From positions 11,311 to 75,310 of the forward strand of contig JBKJNA010000161.1 in assembly GCA_046596195.1 (NCBI GenBank): a DNA stretch of 64,000 bases, written 5' to 3'. How positions within the stretch are numbered: position 1 is the stretch's first letter; each line of letters opens with the position of its first letter. Below, piece after piece: positions 28,141-39,913 of this stretch. The stretch comes from Acidimicrobiales bacterium. GTDB taxonomy: Bacteria > Actinomycetota > Acidimicrobiia > Acidimicrobiales > GCA-2861595. Below the pieces are notes generated by a model, which did no database searches, was not told the DNA's origin, and saw only the letters and a list, made by a program, of their open reading frames with translations. The translations under genes and the position numbers were made by a program.

Positions 28141-30621
28141 CTACAGCTTGGGCACCGTGCACGGCGCCGTGACGGCCTTCGTCGGGGGCGGTGTGTCCGA
28201 GCGCACCAGTGCCTTCAGGGTCCAGCACACCTTGCGGTCGGTGTCGAGGCCGCTGACGGTGTGGTGGTCGGCGCCGGCCGGGAGCTTCAGCTGCCGCACG
28301 GAGCGGCCGTCGCTCAGCACGTACGACCCTTCGAAGCCGGCCACGCGGTCCTGGGCGGCGAAGGTGAGCTCGACGGTGCCGTCGGCCACCACCTCGGCGG
28401 CGACCTCGACGGGGAACAGGTCGGCCGGCGGGGCGGCCCTGGTGGTCGGGGTGGCCGGCGGGCGCCCGCCGTCGCCGCCCGACATGGCCAGCGCCCCACC
28501 GACCACGACGCCGGCCACCACCACGGCGGCGGCCACGATGGCGGGGACGCGGCTCTGCTTCGGCGGAGGAGGCGGCGGCGGGGCGGGCGGCGCCGGGTGG
28601 TGCGACACACCGGTGGGCAGGACCGGCACCACCACCGACGGCAGGGGTGCGGCGACAGGGGGCAGAGGGTTGGGGCGGGCGGGAGCGGAGGGGCCAGCGT
28701 GTGAGAACGGAGCGGCGACGGCCTGGCCGGCCGGCGCCCCTCTGTCGGCGGCAGTGTCCGCCGGGGGGGCCCCGGAGATCGGCGCCCACCCGCCGTTCGT
28801 GCCCACCGCCGACTCGGGATGGGCGCCTGGAAGGCCGGTGCCCACGGGCAGTCCGGCGAAGGGCGCCAGCGCCGGCAGACCGGCCATCGACCCTGCCAGC
28901 CCCTCGAGCTCTGCGGCCAGTGCGGAAGCGGACGGGCGCCGTTGCGGGTCCTTCTCCATGCAGCGGGCGATGACCGACCACAGGGCGTCATCGAGGCCTG
29001 GCGGTCGCACCGGGGCCGTCTCCAGGTGGAGGCGCAGGAGGGCGGCGGGGTGGTCGGCCGAGAACGGGCGCACGCCCGCCAGCAGCTCATAGGCCATGAC
29101 CCCCAACGCGTAGATATCGGCCGGCGGCCCGGCGGTGCGGCCGGCGGCCAGTTCGGGGGCCAGGTACTCGGGCGTGCCGACCACCGAGCCGGTGGACGTG
29201 AGCGCCGGCCCGGCGGCCGAGCGGGCCACGCCGAAGTCGGTGAGGCGGGCGTGAGGCTCGGCCGTGTCGACGGCGTCGATGAGGACGTTCTCGGGCTTGA
29301 GGTCGCGGTGGACGATGCCGCGCCGGTGCACCGCGGCCAGCCCGTGGGCCAGCTGGGCCAGGAGGGCACAGGCGGTGGACGGGGCCACGGTGGCGGTCAT
29401 GGCCGACCAGCGCCGCAGGTCGGGGCCGTCGACCAGGTCCATGACGATGGCGAGGGTGTCGCCCTCGGCCACCAGGTCGTGCACCCGCACCACGTTGGGG
29501 TGCTGGACGGCCAGGAGCGACGTGCGCTCGAGCAGGAAACGGCTCACCAGCTCGGGTGACGAGGTGAGCTCGGGCCGCAGGATCTTCACCGCCACCGGCG
29601 AGCCGTCGGTCGCCCTCGACGCCCGCCACACCTGTCCCATGGCGCCTGCGCCCACGGGCGCATGGAGGAGGTAGCCGGACCCGAGGGGCCGCCCGGCCGG
29701 CGCCGGGGGGGCGCCGGCGGGTAGCGCCGTGTCGAGCCGGCGCATGGCCTCGGGGTCGGGGGCGAAGACGGCGGGCGGCACCGAAGCGTCCGCAGGCGAG
29801 GCCGAGGCGGAGGAGGCGGCGGCCAGGTCGGCGGCCAGGTCGGTGGCGCCGGCGGTGCGGTCCGGTCCCCGGGTGAGGGCCCGCGCCAGGACGGCCACGA
29901 GGGCGGCGGGGACGGTGCCGGAGCGCAGCTCGGGCGGCGCCCCGCCCACGAGGCGGGCCAGCAGCTGGGGGATGCCCTGCACCGCCTCGCGCTCGAACGG
30001 GCTGGTCCCGGTGAGCAGCGTCCACAGCGTGGAGGCCAGCGCCCACGTGTCGCCGGCGGGCGTCCACGCCCGCCCCTCCAGCACCTCGGGCGGCGTGTGG
30101 CGGGGTGGCGGCCCGTCGCCCCGCGCCCTGGCGGCGAGGACGGCCGGCACCGCCATGTCGGCCACGACGGCGCGCTGGTCGACGAGGAGGATGTTGCCGG
30201 GCGAGACCGACCCGTGCACGGCGCCGGCGGCTTGGAGAGCGGCCAGCCCCTCGGCCGCCTGCATGCCGTAGCGCAGGACCAGGTCCGGGGCGAGGGGACC
30301 GGCGCCGGCCATGCGGTCGGCCAGCGAGCCGCCGGCGGCCCACGGCGACGCCAGCCACGGGCGCCCGTCGCCCAGCCGTCCGGCCGCCACCACGGGGTGG
30401 ACGTGCAATGAACGGGGCAGGCGGATCAGCGCATCGCCCTCGCTCTCGAACCGGACGACCCCGGCCGCGTCGAGGGCGACGGTGAGCACCTTCACGGCCA
30501 CGTCGCCGTGGCCGGCCGAGTGGGCCCGGTAGACGGCGCCCCCTGCGCCGGGCGCCACCTCTGTCCAGTCGGTGAAACCGGCCGGCGCAGCGTCGGCGGG
30601 GACGGCCGGCGCCGGCCGCAT
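28141..30621 (-). CDS. membrane Ser/Thr protein kinase with an N-terminal pseudokinase domain, a canonical kinase domain, a Pro-rich linker, a TM helix and an Ig/FN3-like ectodomain
   Basis: Preferred start is ATG 30621; the ORF extends to 30813 but that stretch looks non-coding. Domain 1 has VAVKVL but HGSVSPGN instead of HRDxKxxN and lacks DFG. Domain 2 has GAGAMGQVW, VAVKIL, HRDLKPENVL, DFGVAR and GTPEYLAPE. TM helix is VPAIVAAAVVVAGVVVGGALA. Confidence 0.88.
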   Translation of the reverse strand: MRPAPAVPADAAPAGFTDWTEVAPGAGGAVYRAHSAGHGDVAVKVLTVALDAAGVVRFESEGDALIRLPRSLHVHPVVAAGRLGDGRPWLASPWAAGGSLADRMAGAGPLAPDLVLRYGMQAAEGLAALQAAGAVHGSVSPGNILLVDQRAVVADMAVPAVLAARARGDGPPPRHTPPEVLEGRAWTPAGDTWALASTLWTLLTGTSPFEREAVQGIPQLLARLVGGAPPELRSGTVPAALVAVLARALTRGPDRTAGATDLAADLAAASSASASPADASVPPAVFAPDPEAMRRLDTALPAGAPPAPAGRPLGSGYLLHAPVGAGAMGQVWRASRATDGSPVAVKILRPELTSSPELVSRFLLERTSLLAVQHPNVVRVHDLVAEGDTLAIVMDLVDGPDLRRWSAMTATVAPSTACALLAQLAHGLAAVHRRGIVHRDLKPENVLIDAVDTAEPHARLTDFGVARSAAGPALTSTGSVVGTPEYLAPELAAGRTAGPPADIYALGVMAYELLAGVRPFSADHPAALLRLHLETAPVRPPGLDDALWSVIARCMEKDPQRRPSASALAAELEGLAGSMAGLPALAPFAGLPVGTGLPGAHPESAVGTNGGWAPISGAPPADTAADRGAPAGQAVAAPFSHAGPSAPARPNPLPPVAAPLPSVVVPVLPTGVSHHPAPPAPPPPPPPKQSRVPAIVAAAVVVAGVVVGGALAMSGGDGGRPPATPTTRAAPPADLFPVEVAAEVVADGTVELTFAAQDRVAGFEGSYVLSDGRSVRQLKLPAGADHHTVSGLDTDRKVCWTLKALVRSDTPPPTKAVTAPCTVPKL

Positions 30622-30814
30622 CACCCTCGCCGTCCGTGGGGTCCGGAGCCTCCCAAGCTGCCCTCCGTGCTTCGAGCTGCGCTCGGACCGGCGGAAAGCC
30701 GGCGAAGCCACAGTCTCGCATGATTGGAAGGGCTCGTTTCTGCGCCCGGCCCGGAGGCGGGCCCGCCGCTGAGCGGCGATCCCGCCCGCCCGGGCTGCGG
30801 GCGCCGTCGCCATC

Positions 30815-39326: not shown

Positions 39327-39913
39327 GGCCTCAGTCTCCCGGTTTCGCGCCGGCCCGGGGAAATGCCCCTCGGCCTCGCCGATCCTCGGCGAACCGGAAC
39401 GGGGACGGTGAGCCCGCCCAGGACGATCCCGACGCCTGCGAAGGCGAAGCCGAGGGCCAGGGTCATGGCGCCGAGACCGACCACCAGATCCGAGACGTTG
39501 AACGCCAGGACGGACGTGTAGAGGCCGGTGCGATTGGCCGACGCCTCGAAGGCGACGCTGCGTAGCGGATTCCTCACGGGCTGCCCGTCGGCGCCCCGCA
39601 CCGCCTCGGCCTCGATGCTGGTACCTGCGGGGCTGCGGTCCGCGGTCATGAAGCGGCCCATCTCGCCGTAGCTCAGCCCGCCTGTGGTCTCCCGGGCGTG
39701 GACGTCGATGATGTCGGCCATGGCCTTCGCCGTCGCCGCGCTCCTGACGGGTGCGTTGGCGATGGCGGCGTCTTTGGGTGTGGTGATGTTCTGTCTGCGG
39801 AGCTCGGCCCGGACCTGGTCCCTGGCCTCGGTGCCGCGGTCGACGGCATAGGCGCCGCCGCCGACGAACGCGATGCCGAGCACGACGAGCGCTACTGCAA
39901 ATGCCTTCTTCAT
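39302..39913 (-). CDS. hypothetical bitopic membrane protein (TM helices at both ends)
   Basis: ATG 39913 is preceded by GGGAGGAAG. MKKAFAVALVVLGIAFVGGGAYAV... then a soluble middle part and ..LVVGLGAMTLALGFAFAGVGIVLGGL. The 3' end overlaps the essC-like start by 25 nt. Confidence 0.55.
   Translation of the reverse strand: MKKAFAVALVVLGIAFVGGGAYAVDRGTEARDQVRAELRRQNITTPKDAAIANAPVRSAATAKAMADIIDVHARETTGGLSYGEMGRFMTADRSPAGTSIEAEAVRGADGQPVRNPLRSVAFEASANRTGLYTSVLAFNVSDLVVGLGAMTLALGFAFAGVGIVLGGLTVPVPVRRGSARPRGISPGRRETGRLRPWSSLSPS

Follow-up and report, generated by a model that had tools for sequence, protein, structure and literature searches.

A conserved eight-gene module of Actinomycetota combines a putative surface sensor and Ser/Thr kinase with an EccC/WXG100 pair lacking canonical type VII secretion membrane genes nearby

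We analyzed a 64,000-nt stretch of DNA (hereafter, the window) from an Acidimicrobiales bacterium (contig JBKJNA010000161.1), in which a WXG100 gene and a gene for an EccC/EssC-type ATPase lie within a block of putative signaling genes. Because the G+C content of the window is about 73%, genes were called by third-position GC; the called open reading frames (ORFs), about 50 across the 64 kb, were then scanned against Pfam and NCBIfam. A first-pass annotation had described the block as a non-canonical neighborhood of a type VII secretion system (T7SS). The genes that it listed are indeed present at or near the positions it gave. All genes of the block are on the minus strand except that for a PASTA-domain protein, which is on the plus strand between the ATPase gene and the gene for a protein with FHA and helix-turn-helix (HTH) domains, FHA-HTH. 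A scan of the block for promoter and terminator consensus sequences was uninformative.

The ATPase gene (34923–39326, minus strand) encodes a protein of 1467 aa, which scored 571 bits against the EssC model TIGR03928, 430 bits against EccCa (TIGR03924) and 298 bits against EccCb (TIGR03925), all below the curated equivalog cut-offs. Its best match in PDB was Thermomonospora curvata EccC (4nh0), and YukB was matched as well. Judged by its sequence, the protein is a clear member of the EccC/EssC family, but falls within no curated subtype. It has two transmembrane helices and, as annotated initially, three P-loop domains. Two features had been missed, the degeneracy of the second and third of these domains and an additional N-terminal domain. 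The first domain, D1, is canonical (motifs GTTGAGKS and VIVIDE), and in the EccC proteins studied so far this is the domain responsible for catalysis. In D2 and D3, alignment of 36 homologs and inspection of the motifs revealed that Arg replaces the Walker A Lys family-wide. A single FHA domain with the signature GR...SRRH...SRNGT precedes both transmembrane helices. Residues G105, R106, S120 and H123 of this domain are invariant in the same alignment and, therefore, it should bind phosphothreonine. The N-terminal domain (aa 1–72) is ubiquitin-like (Ubl), its profile matching ISG15 and ubiquitin at E 6e-7, and some members of the family individually match PF00240 (ubiquitin) or YukD in Pfam. 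The fused Ubl is also detectable on EccC-like ATPases in 26 of 89 collected loci (e.g. L004, L006, L008, L010 and L012), and it occurs on Streptomyces EccC-like ATPases that have neither an FHA domain nor a MoxR gene set nearby. We considered whether the FtsK-like ATPase could be a conjugative or other DNA translocase, but rejected this reading in view of the three-domain EccC/EssC architecture and the WXG100 context. An anti-phage defense system was likewise rejected, as PADLOC gave just generic kinase and FtsK-domain matches.

The putative substrate of the ATPase is an EsxA-like WXG100 protein of 87 aa (30815–31078, minus strand). With single-sequence searches it scored just below the gathering score of PF06013 (26.0 versus 27.3 bits) and below the cut-off of TIGR03930 (32.8 versus 44.85 bits). 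However, a profile of eight orthologs matched solved EsxA structures from Geobacillus and S. aureus (3zbh, E 4e-8; 2vs0, E 9e-8), and W41 and G43 of the WxG motif, together with F49, are invariant among the orthologs. Its assignment as a WXG100 protein thus stands. By gene content, the ATPase and the WXG100 protein together would qualify as type VII secretion in the broad sense. On the other hand, there was no family match to EccB, EccD, EccE, mycosin or PE/PPE, nor to EssA, EssB/YukC or EsaA, among the ORFs of the window. According to precomputed Pfam labels, EccB, EccD, EccE, MycP, EssA, EssB and EsaA are also absent from seven related loci, including their 10-kb flanks. The family scans therefore bear out the initial description of a WXG100 and EccC/EssC-type cluster without canonical T7SSa or T7SSb membrane genes nearby.

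Immediately adjacent to the WXG100 gene is a gene for a membrane receptor of 890 aa (28141–30813, minus strand) with two Pfam Pkinase stretches. Its start is probably at 30621, because the first 64 codons are atypical in codon-position GC and look non-coding. The description of this protein as a tandem of a pseudokinase and a kinase holds: the first domain has HGS instead of HRD and DMA instead of DFG, whereas the second is fully canonical (HRDLKPEN, DFG) and, judging by these motifs, is an active Ser/Thr kinase. A single transmembrane helix (residues 759–777) is followed by an ectodomain of about 110 aa. Neither the window nor any of the related module loci gave a match to a phosphatase family.

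The plus-strand gene (31990–34893) encodes a candidate surface sensor of 967 aa. It had been recognized as a multi-PASTA membrane protein, and Pfam PASTA indeed matches it in five stretches (128.7 bits), but the annotation had missed a β-propeller. In the AlphaFold model, which has a mean predicted local distance difference test (pLDDT) score of 67, an N-terminal transmembrane anchor is followed by a β-propeller (aa 74–366), a Pro-rich linker and six PASTA-like units (aa 434–830). Foldseek matched the model to NirF, a YVTN propeller, BamB and YncE at E values of 1e-10 to 1e-12, and also to the PASTA regions of PknB and PrkC. Only 12 homologs were found at E<1e-10, compared with more than 400 for the FHA-HTH protein, indicating that the PASTA protein is by far the fastest-evolving member of the set. 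Its C-terminal part of about 135 aa (residues 833–967; 34486–34890, plus strand) has no family match and low model confidence, and is conserved in the closest relatives alone.

Next to the PASTA gene, and divergent from it, lies the gene for the FHA-HTH protein, a putative output regulator (31193–31876, minus strand; 227 aa, or 218 aa from 31849, which is probably the true start). This protein is far more conserved: among its more than 400 homologs, identity is still 54–60% at rank 120. It has no match in Pfam, and a sequence search against PDB returned nothing informative. The AlphaFold model (pLDDT 85.5), however, has an N-terminal FHA β-sandwich, and the top 50 Foldseek matches in PDB are all FHA domains. 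Residues G17, R18, S34, R35, N51 and S53 are invariant, and a Thr at position 120, located in a disordered linker, is at least 90% conserved. The C-terminal domain of six helices gave weak matches, all of them to HTH families and centered on the motif SYADAAxxLGWPRTTLVKRIEHLR. Since the N-terminal part has the FHA fold and the C-terminal matches are exclusively to HTH families, the name FHA-HTH appears right. The block thus has two FHA domains, as originally annotated, one on this protein and one on the ATPase, and both keep the phosphothreonine-binding residues. Together with the canonical kinase and the near-invariant linker Thr, they point to control by Thr phosphorylation, in line with the phospho-regulation suggested at the outset. 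The layout of the FHA-HTH protein recalls switches of the GarA/OdhI type and also EsrG, which is phosphorylated in a disordered region.

We also looked at the DNA around this gene. In all eight module loci, a 14-bp near-palindrome, GGGAAGSSCTYCCC, is present upstream of the FHA-HTH gene. The window has two sites. One, at 31890–31903, is in the divergent FHA-HTH/PASTA promoter region and reads GGGAAGGGCTCCCC on the minus strand; the other, at 31159–31172, is 81–94 nt upstream of the WXG100 start and reads GGGAAGGCCTCCCC, or GAACGGGAAGGCCTCCCC in its extended form. These are the only two sites in the 64 kb that match the degenerate pattern, each matching on both strands, with 0.5 matches expected by chance on the two strands together. 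The candidate operator, of 14–18 bp, may be described by the form GAACGGGAAGSSCTCCCC. In the two closest relatives (L005 and L088), further sites, which were not used to derive the pattern, occur upstream of the WXG100 gene and of the ATPase gene. Weaker sites are found in the FHA-HTH/WXG100 intergenic region of Micromonospora (L003), Actinokineospora (L086) and Frankia (L087). As a background, there were four strict matches in 1.56 Mb of other loci. One strict palindrome, GGGAAGGCCTTCCC, occurs at 7648–7661 of L039, an Actinomycetes metagenome-assembled genome (MAG) with an ATPase 35% identical to that of the window. It lies beside the WXG100-like ORFs 7573–8013 and 7617–8321 and close to the end of the ATPase gene, and no FHA-HTH homolog was found on that short contig. 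Conversely, at 10001–12690 of L089, a close FHA-HTH homolog adjoins fragmentary kinase ORFs, and neither an ATPase gene nor a WXG100 gene nor a MoxR set lies within 10 kb; the module may have decayed here, or the long-read assembly may be rich in frameshifts. No other protein of the module is a candidate for DNA binding, which makes FHA-HTH the likely binder of the palindromes.

Downstream of the kinase gene, and only 45 nt from its stop codon, starts a gene for a MoxR-family AAA+ ATPase (27106–28095, minus strand). The protein matches AAA_3 (206.9 bits) and AAA_lid_2 (80 bits), as well as bpMoxR (PF20030), at 30.3 bits, above the gathering score of 27. It is followed by a gene for a DUF58 protein (25866–27026, minus strand; PF01882, 39 bits) with N-terminal membrane segments (hydrophobic residues 6–51), for which a sequence search against PDB returned no match. 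DUF58 proteins are the usual partners of MoxR, and the two genes are adjacent in all module loci. Next comes a gene for a TgpA-like polytopic membrane protein (24103–25890, minus strand; TgpA_N, 74.8 bits; Transglut_core, 65.8 bits) with six to eight hydrophobic segments. This protein appears to be a pseudo-transglutaminase: the catalytic Cys of Pseudomonas aeruginosa TgpA (6g49, GFCAHYA) aligns to Ala (GTAEQYA), whereas His and Asp are kept. In all eight homologs examined, two Agromyces loci among them, the Cys is missing, with A, S, E, G, D or N in its place. The last gene of the run encodes a single-pass DUF4129 protein (23552–24130, minus strand; PF13559, 31 bits; one transmembrane helix). 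In Micromonospora, Actinokineospora and an Acidimicrobiales MAG (L003, L086 and L002), the transglutaminase-like and DUF4129 parts form one protein. When the window is aligned with these single-gene homologs, the alignment switches frame at about 24157–24211, within a Pro-rich linker, and the two ORFs overlap by 28 nt. The split may reflect two coupled genes, a genuine frameshift or a mistake in the assembly.

At the opposite end of the block, a gene for a bitopic membrane protein of 203 aa (39302–39913, minus strand) overlaps the start of the ATPase gene, just as first annotated; the overlap is 25 nt. Its inclusion in the block, however, did not hold up. There was no tblastn match to it in any related locus, and we rejected it as a component. 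The family itself is real, with 357 representatives at E<1e-3 and proteins of about 190 aa, but it occurs in unrelated contexts; for example, a 55% identical homolog is encoded between pyruvate kinase and ABC-F ATPase genes. Sequence comparison thus suggests that the bitopic protein is probably not part of the module.

How typical is this gene arrangement? Among the matches listed in a scan of a genome collection with the ATPase alignment, few carried the module, and conservation was therefore addressed through exact-protein look-ups of gene context, which gave seven related loci. Among the scan matches listed, most were distant EccC/EssC relatives, at most 48% identical, the one exception being L062 (64% identity in the best segment), and the distant EccC-like ATPases mostly lacked module partners. 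By contrast, all seven loci whose ATPase is at least 49% identical to that of the window, spread over two classes and four further orders, carry the whole set of eight genes: those for the β-propeller–PASTA protein, FHA-HTH, WXG100, the Ubl-FHA-EccC ATPase, the pseudokinase–kinase, MoxR, DUF58 and the transglutaminase-like protein. The consensus order is PASTA (on the opposite strand), FHA-HTH, WXG100, ATPase, kinase, MoxR, DUF58 and transglutaminase. It is identical in Micromonospora echinospora, Actinokineospora enzanensis and Frankia torreyi, and is retained in Aquihabitans sp. G128 (Acidimicrobiia) and an Acidimicrobiales MAG, where extra genes separate the WXG100 gene from the ATPase gene. 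The two closest relatives (ATPase identity 77% and 68%) share the variant order of the window, with the ATPase gene on the other side of the PASTA gene. Since the flanking genes differ in every locus, the block appears to be inherited as a unit. The expectation that the neighborhood would be conserved in relatives was thus confirmed across two classes. For the same reason, that is, co-inheritance of the same eight genes next to unrelated flanks, the MoxR, DUF58 and transglutaminase-like genes are part of the system. The first-pass annotation had correctly noted that they continue the block on the same strand, but had treated them as a separate module that merely lies downstream.

The related loci also have genes that the window lacks. 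Within the block they may encode a second WXG100-like protein, a CHAP or SLT+CHAP hydrolase of about 500 aa, a 245–291-aa protein weakly similar to EspG3 (E 0.03), and WXG100_2-domain proteins of 401–554 aa (LXG/WXG100_2-type) with a 101-aa partner; a Peptidase_M10 protein is also among the variable cargo. These regions correspond to positions 7406–10004 in L001, 5902–9902 in L002, 827–2796 and 11330–14144 in L088, and 3254–6149 in L005. We searched the window for these extra genes and found none of them. With a single WXG100 gene and no cargo, the window therefore represents the most reduced version of the module.

We next asked how the module relates to known systems. The closest parallel is the Esr pathway of Schaalia odontolytica and further Actinomycetes, in which threat sensing is coupled to Esx (Wang et al., bioRxiv 2026; PMC13622651). 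It consists of the β-propeller/repeat surface sensor EsrA, MoxR and vWA proteins, the transglutaminase EsrD, the kinase EsrE, the phosphatase EsrF and the FHA output protein EsrG; 40% of the Esr loci found adjoin esx genes, EsrG is sometimes fused to EccC, and Esr2 is needed post-translationally for export of some Esx substrates (PMC13622651). We set the module against the Schaalia proteins by their description, and the likeness, especially to the Esr2 type linked to Esx, is considerable. Both have a surface protein with a β-propeller and a repeat linker (here according to a model of moderate confidence), MoxR with a vWA-class partner (here matched by AAA_3/bpMoxR and DUF58 family membership), a transglutaminase-like protein in the membrane, a Ser/Thr kinase and an output protein with an FHA domain. 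Each has a physical link to EccC and WXG100 genes, and FHA–EccC fusions have been reported for Esr as well. There are also clear differences. In the module's surface protein, PASTA repeats form the linker and a transmembrane segment at the N-terminus provides the anchor, whereas EsrA has a Sec signal and Ig repeats. The module's kinase is preceded by a pseudokinase and, unlike the EsrE/EsrF kinase–phosphatase pair, has no phosphatase in the cluster. The output protein is FHA-HTH with a candidate operator rather than a pseudophosphatase–FHA or Zn-finger–FHA protein, and the ATPase has the Ubl-FHA-EccC architecture. Furthermore, Esr has been reported as effectively confined to the class Actinomycetes (PMC13622651), while the module is present also in Acidimicrobiia. 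Finally, EsrD has been proposed to anchor EsrA covalently (PMC13622651), but the module's transglutaminase lacks the catalytic Cys. In two Agromyces loci (Actinomycetales; L074 and L079, 5.3–8.2 kb), MoxR–DUF58–transglutaminase clusters adjoining EccC have GDGEQYA at this position, again without the catalytic Cys, and this apparent loss bears on the anchoring role proposed for EsrD. As an indirect check on the relation to Esr, tblastn against the Agromyces locus L079 gave 315 bits for MoxR, 118 for DUF58 and 51 for the transglutaminase.

A second parallel is the PFNA operon of Bifidobacterium, pkb2-fn3-aaa(MoxR)-duf58-tgm, with or without prpC, a hypothetical gene and fha, in which Pkb2 phosphorylates the MoxR protein (PMC8430577). 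The order kinase–MoxR–DUF58–transglutaminase is the same, and in each case there is an FHA protein as well as a divergent surface protein. However, the PFNA surface protein is of the FN3 type, the operon is not described with EccC or WXG100, and it has been read as a sensor of host cytokines. Among T7SSs proper, subtypes T7SSc–j were defined by Garrett, Higginson and Palmer in 2024, who found that kinases and FHA proteins are common in non-canonical clusters; MoxR, PASTA and transglutaminase are not mentioned in that paper (PMC11217815). One of these subtypes, T7SSd of Olsenella and Bifidobacterium, comprises TsdA, TsdC (an FHA-ATPase), TsdD (a kinase), TsdH and the Ig-repeat protein TsdI, but no ubiquitin-like component and no MoxR set (PMC11217815). 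The module shares with T7SSd a WXG100 protein, an ATPase with a phosphothreonine-competent FHA domain, a membrane Ser/Thr kinase, a large surface protein and the absence of T7SSa/T7SSb membrane components. It differs in the Ubl fused to the ATPase and in the surface protein (β-propeller–PASTA with an N-terminal anchor, as opposed to Ig repeats with a C-terminal anchor in TsdI). Moreover, the MoxR, DUF58, transglutaminase and FHA-HTH proteins have no T7SSd counterparts, and the module ATPase is only 26–31% identical to those of Coriobacteriia loci.

The module also resembles T7SSb of Bacillota (EssC, EsxA, EsaB/YukD, EssB/YukC, EssA, EsaA) in the N-terminal FHA on the ATPase, the ubiquitin-like module, a single-pass membrane protein with a cytoplasmic pseudokinase domain and the WXG100 protein, which is closest to firmicute EsxA; the CHAP hydrolase of the relatives is comparable to EssH. 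Yet the ATPase has one phosphothreonine-competent FHA domain versus two on EssC, and its Ubl is fused, whereas EsaB/YukD is free. The pseudokinase is of the standard Pkinase type, followed by an active kinase, with no YukC/EssB sequence match, and the window has no matches to EssA or EsaA. With T7SSa (ESX), the module has in common the EccC-type three-domain ATPase, WXG100 and possibly, in relatives, an EspG-like protein. It differs in the absence of EccB, EccD, EccE, MycP and PE/PPE locally, in the Ubl and FHA domains of the ATPase, and in having a single WXG100 protein instead of an EsxA/EsxB pair. As defining features of T7SSa, T7SSb and T7SSd were each looked for here and not found, the module does not belong to any of them. 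It is best filed with the recently recognized sensor-coupled, phospho-regulated non-canonical T7SS/Esx systems described in 2024–2026. The set of partners is non-standard, as first annotated, but the architecture is less unprecedented than had been implied: kinase- and FHA-linked T7SS variants have already been described, and the principle is present in T7SSc–j (2024), the PFNA operon and Esr-Esx (2026 preprint).

Starting from what was established here, namely the gene content, the domain architectures, the co-inheritance of eight genes in two classes and the conserved palindrome at module promoters, we propose how the module may work. For each step, from sensing through the MoxR step, phosphorylation and operator binding to secretion, we infer the role from architecture, conservation and analogy. 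The membrane-anchored β-propeller–PASTA protein would sense a cue from outside the cell or from its wall, for instance peptidoglycan fragments or the surface of a foreign cell. The signal would pass via a membrane-associated complex of the MoxR AAA+ protein, DUF58 and the non-catalytic TgpA-like protein to the pseudokinase–kinase receptor, which would then phosphorylate Thr, the prime candidate being the near-invariant linker Thr of FHA-HTH. Two outputs can be envisaged. In one, FHA-HTH would bind palindromes of the form GAACGGGAAG-SSC-TCCCC upstream of its own and the PASTA genes, at the WXG100–kinase–MoxR operon and, in relatives, upstream of the ATPase gene, and thereby set transcription. 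In the other, the phosphothreonine-competent FHA domain of the Ubl-FHA-EccC ATPase would gate assembly or activity of the secretion motor. The ATPase would export the EsxA-like WXG100 protein and, in relatives, also LXG/WXG100_2-type effectors, aided by the CHAP/SLT wall hydrolases and the EspG-like protein. On balance, we think it fairly probable that the region encodes a self-contained signaling-plus-secretion module, conserved across Actinomycetota, that works in this way.

Several observations weigh against this proposal. Members of this exact module are known here from genes alone. No candidate channel-forming partner of the ATPase was identified and the ESX/Ess membrane genes (EccB, EccD, EccE, MycP, EssA, EssB and EsaA) are absent locally, so that export competence is an assumption; the P-loops of D2 and D3 carry Arg for Lys, and the window holds no effector genes. 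On the signaling side, the model of the PASTA protein is of moderate confidence and was built on 12 sequences, and the cluster has no PP2C phosphatase, unlike Esr1 and PFNA. Covalent anchoring of the EsrD type cannot apply as such, because the transglutaminase is devoid of its nucleophile. The HTH assignment is based on sub-threshold matches, and the palindrome pattern was derived from the upstream regions of the regulator's own gene, which leaves just the additional sites as independent.

A more far-reaching version of the proposal is that the module is an eleventh, self-sufficient T7SS subtype beyond T7SSa–j, with an alternative translocon, a receptor switch and a dedicated regulator and operator. 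The translocon would do without EccB/D/E/MycP and EssA/B/EsaA and would perhaps be formed by the Ubl-FHA-EccC ATPase, the polytopic pseudo-transglutaminase, DUF58 and the kinase, with the β-propeller–PASTA receptor activating it via the MoxR chaperone step and Thr phosphorylation. Such a subtype would be ancient in Actinomycetota, since it is common to Acidimicrobiia and Actinomycetes. We regard this version as possible, but are more inclined to doubt it than to accept it.

Alternatively, the ATPase and WXG100 protein could be an arm of a canonical ESX system (T7SSa) whose EccB, EccD, EccE and MycP genes are elsewhere in the genome. The best solved relative of the ATPase is after all an actinobacterial EccC, and relatives show weak signs of an EspG-like protein, a type usually associated with T7SSa. 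Nevertheless, this seems unlikely, since no ESX core family was found in the 64 kb or in the 10-kb flanks of the seven related loci, and the module is inherited as a unit. Moreover, the ATPase has its own fused Ubl, a fold that in T7SSa is supplied by EccD, and, unlike T7SSa EccC, an FHA domain. Similarly improbable, in our assessment, is that the genes form a circuit for cell-envelope signaling or homeostasis in which nothing is exported, WXG100 being a cytoplasmic adaptor or the ATPase remodeling a membrane complex. The degenerate D2 and D3 and the lack of effectors in the window agree with this idea, as do the PASTA domains and PknB-like kinase, classic sensors of cell-wall growth, and the housekeeping genomic setting (dnaX-ybaB-recR, hrpB). 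Esx proteins also affect development in Streptomyces. However, D1 is fully canonical, and relatives hold typical T7SS cargo and helpers, namely LXG/WXG100_2-type proteins, extra WXG100 genes and CHAP/SLT hydrolases. It is very improbable that chance or vertical inheritance has simply placed two unrelated and functionally unlinked systems next to each other, a WXG100/EccC pair and a stress module of MoxR, DUF58 and transglutaminase: although MoxR–DUF58–transglutaminase sets also exist without a nearby EccC (PFNA operon, PMC8430577) and for many of the sampled EccC-like ATPases no MoxR set lies within 10 kb, the whole set is retained in the seven related loci with differing flanks, even after internal rearrangement, and both Esr-Esx linkage and FHA-EccC fusions are documented (PMC13622651).

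Outside the block, the window holds housekeeping or unrelated genes. Past the DUF4129 gene, on the minus strand, are dnaX, ybaB and recR; other genes include asd and those for aspartokinase, an acyl-CoA carboxyltransferase, an ATP-dependent DNA ligase, hrpB, a P450 and a sugar transferase. A run for Phe/Tyr catabolism (45142–49686, plus strand), preceded by an AsnC-type regulator (44530–45015), encodes an aromatic amino-acid hydroxylase, an HPPD-like dioxygenase, fumarylacetoacetase and a homogentisate dioxygenase-like protein. In addition, a 155-aa ORF with a Cas12f1-like TNB domain (16129–16596, plus strand; PF07282, 63.8 bits) looks like the remnant of a TnpB-type transposon gene.

The module bears on how T7SSs work and are regulated outside mycobacteria and firmicutes. 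It is widespread among Actinomycetota of the soil (Frankia, Micromonospora, Streptosporangiales, Pseudonocardiales and Acidimicrobiia are examples), and it links a candidate surface sensor, a kinase and an EccC motor with a MoxR/DUF58 unit and two FHA readers in a compact, fixed layout. One conserved Thr, one candidate operator of 14–18 bp and a non-catalytic transglutaminase offer testable handles on the signaling. If the machine were indeed self-sufficient, it would have the smallest known set of T7SS components. As it stands, the module carries the recently proposed connection of threat sensing with Esx into taxa other than those in which it was first described.

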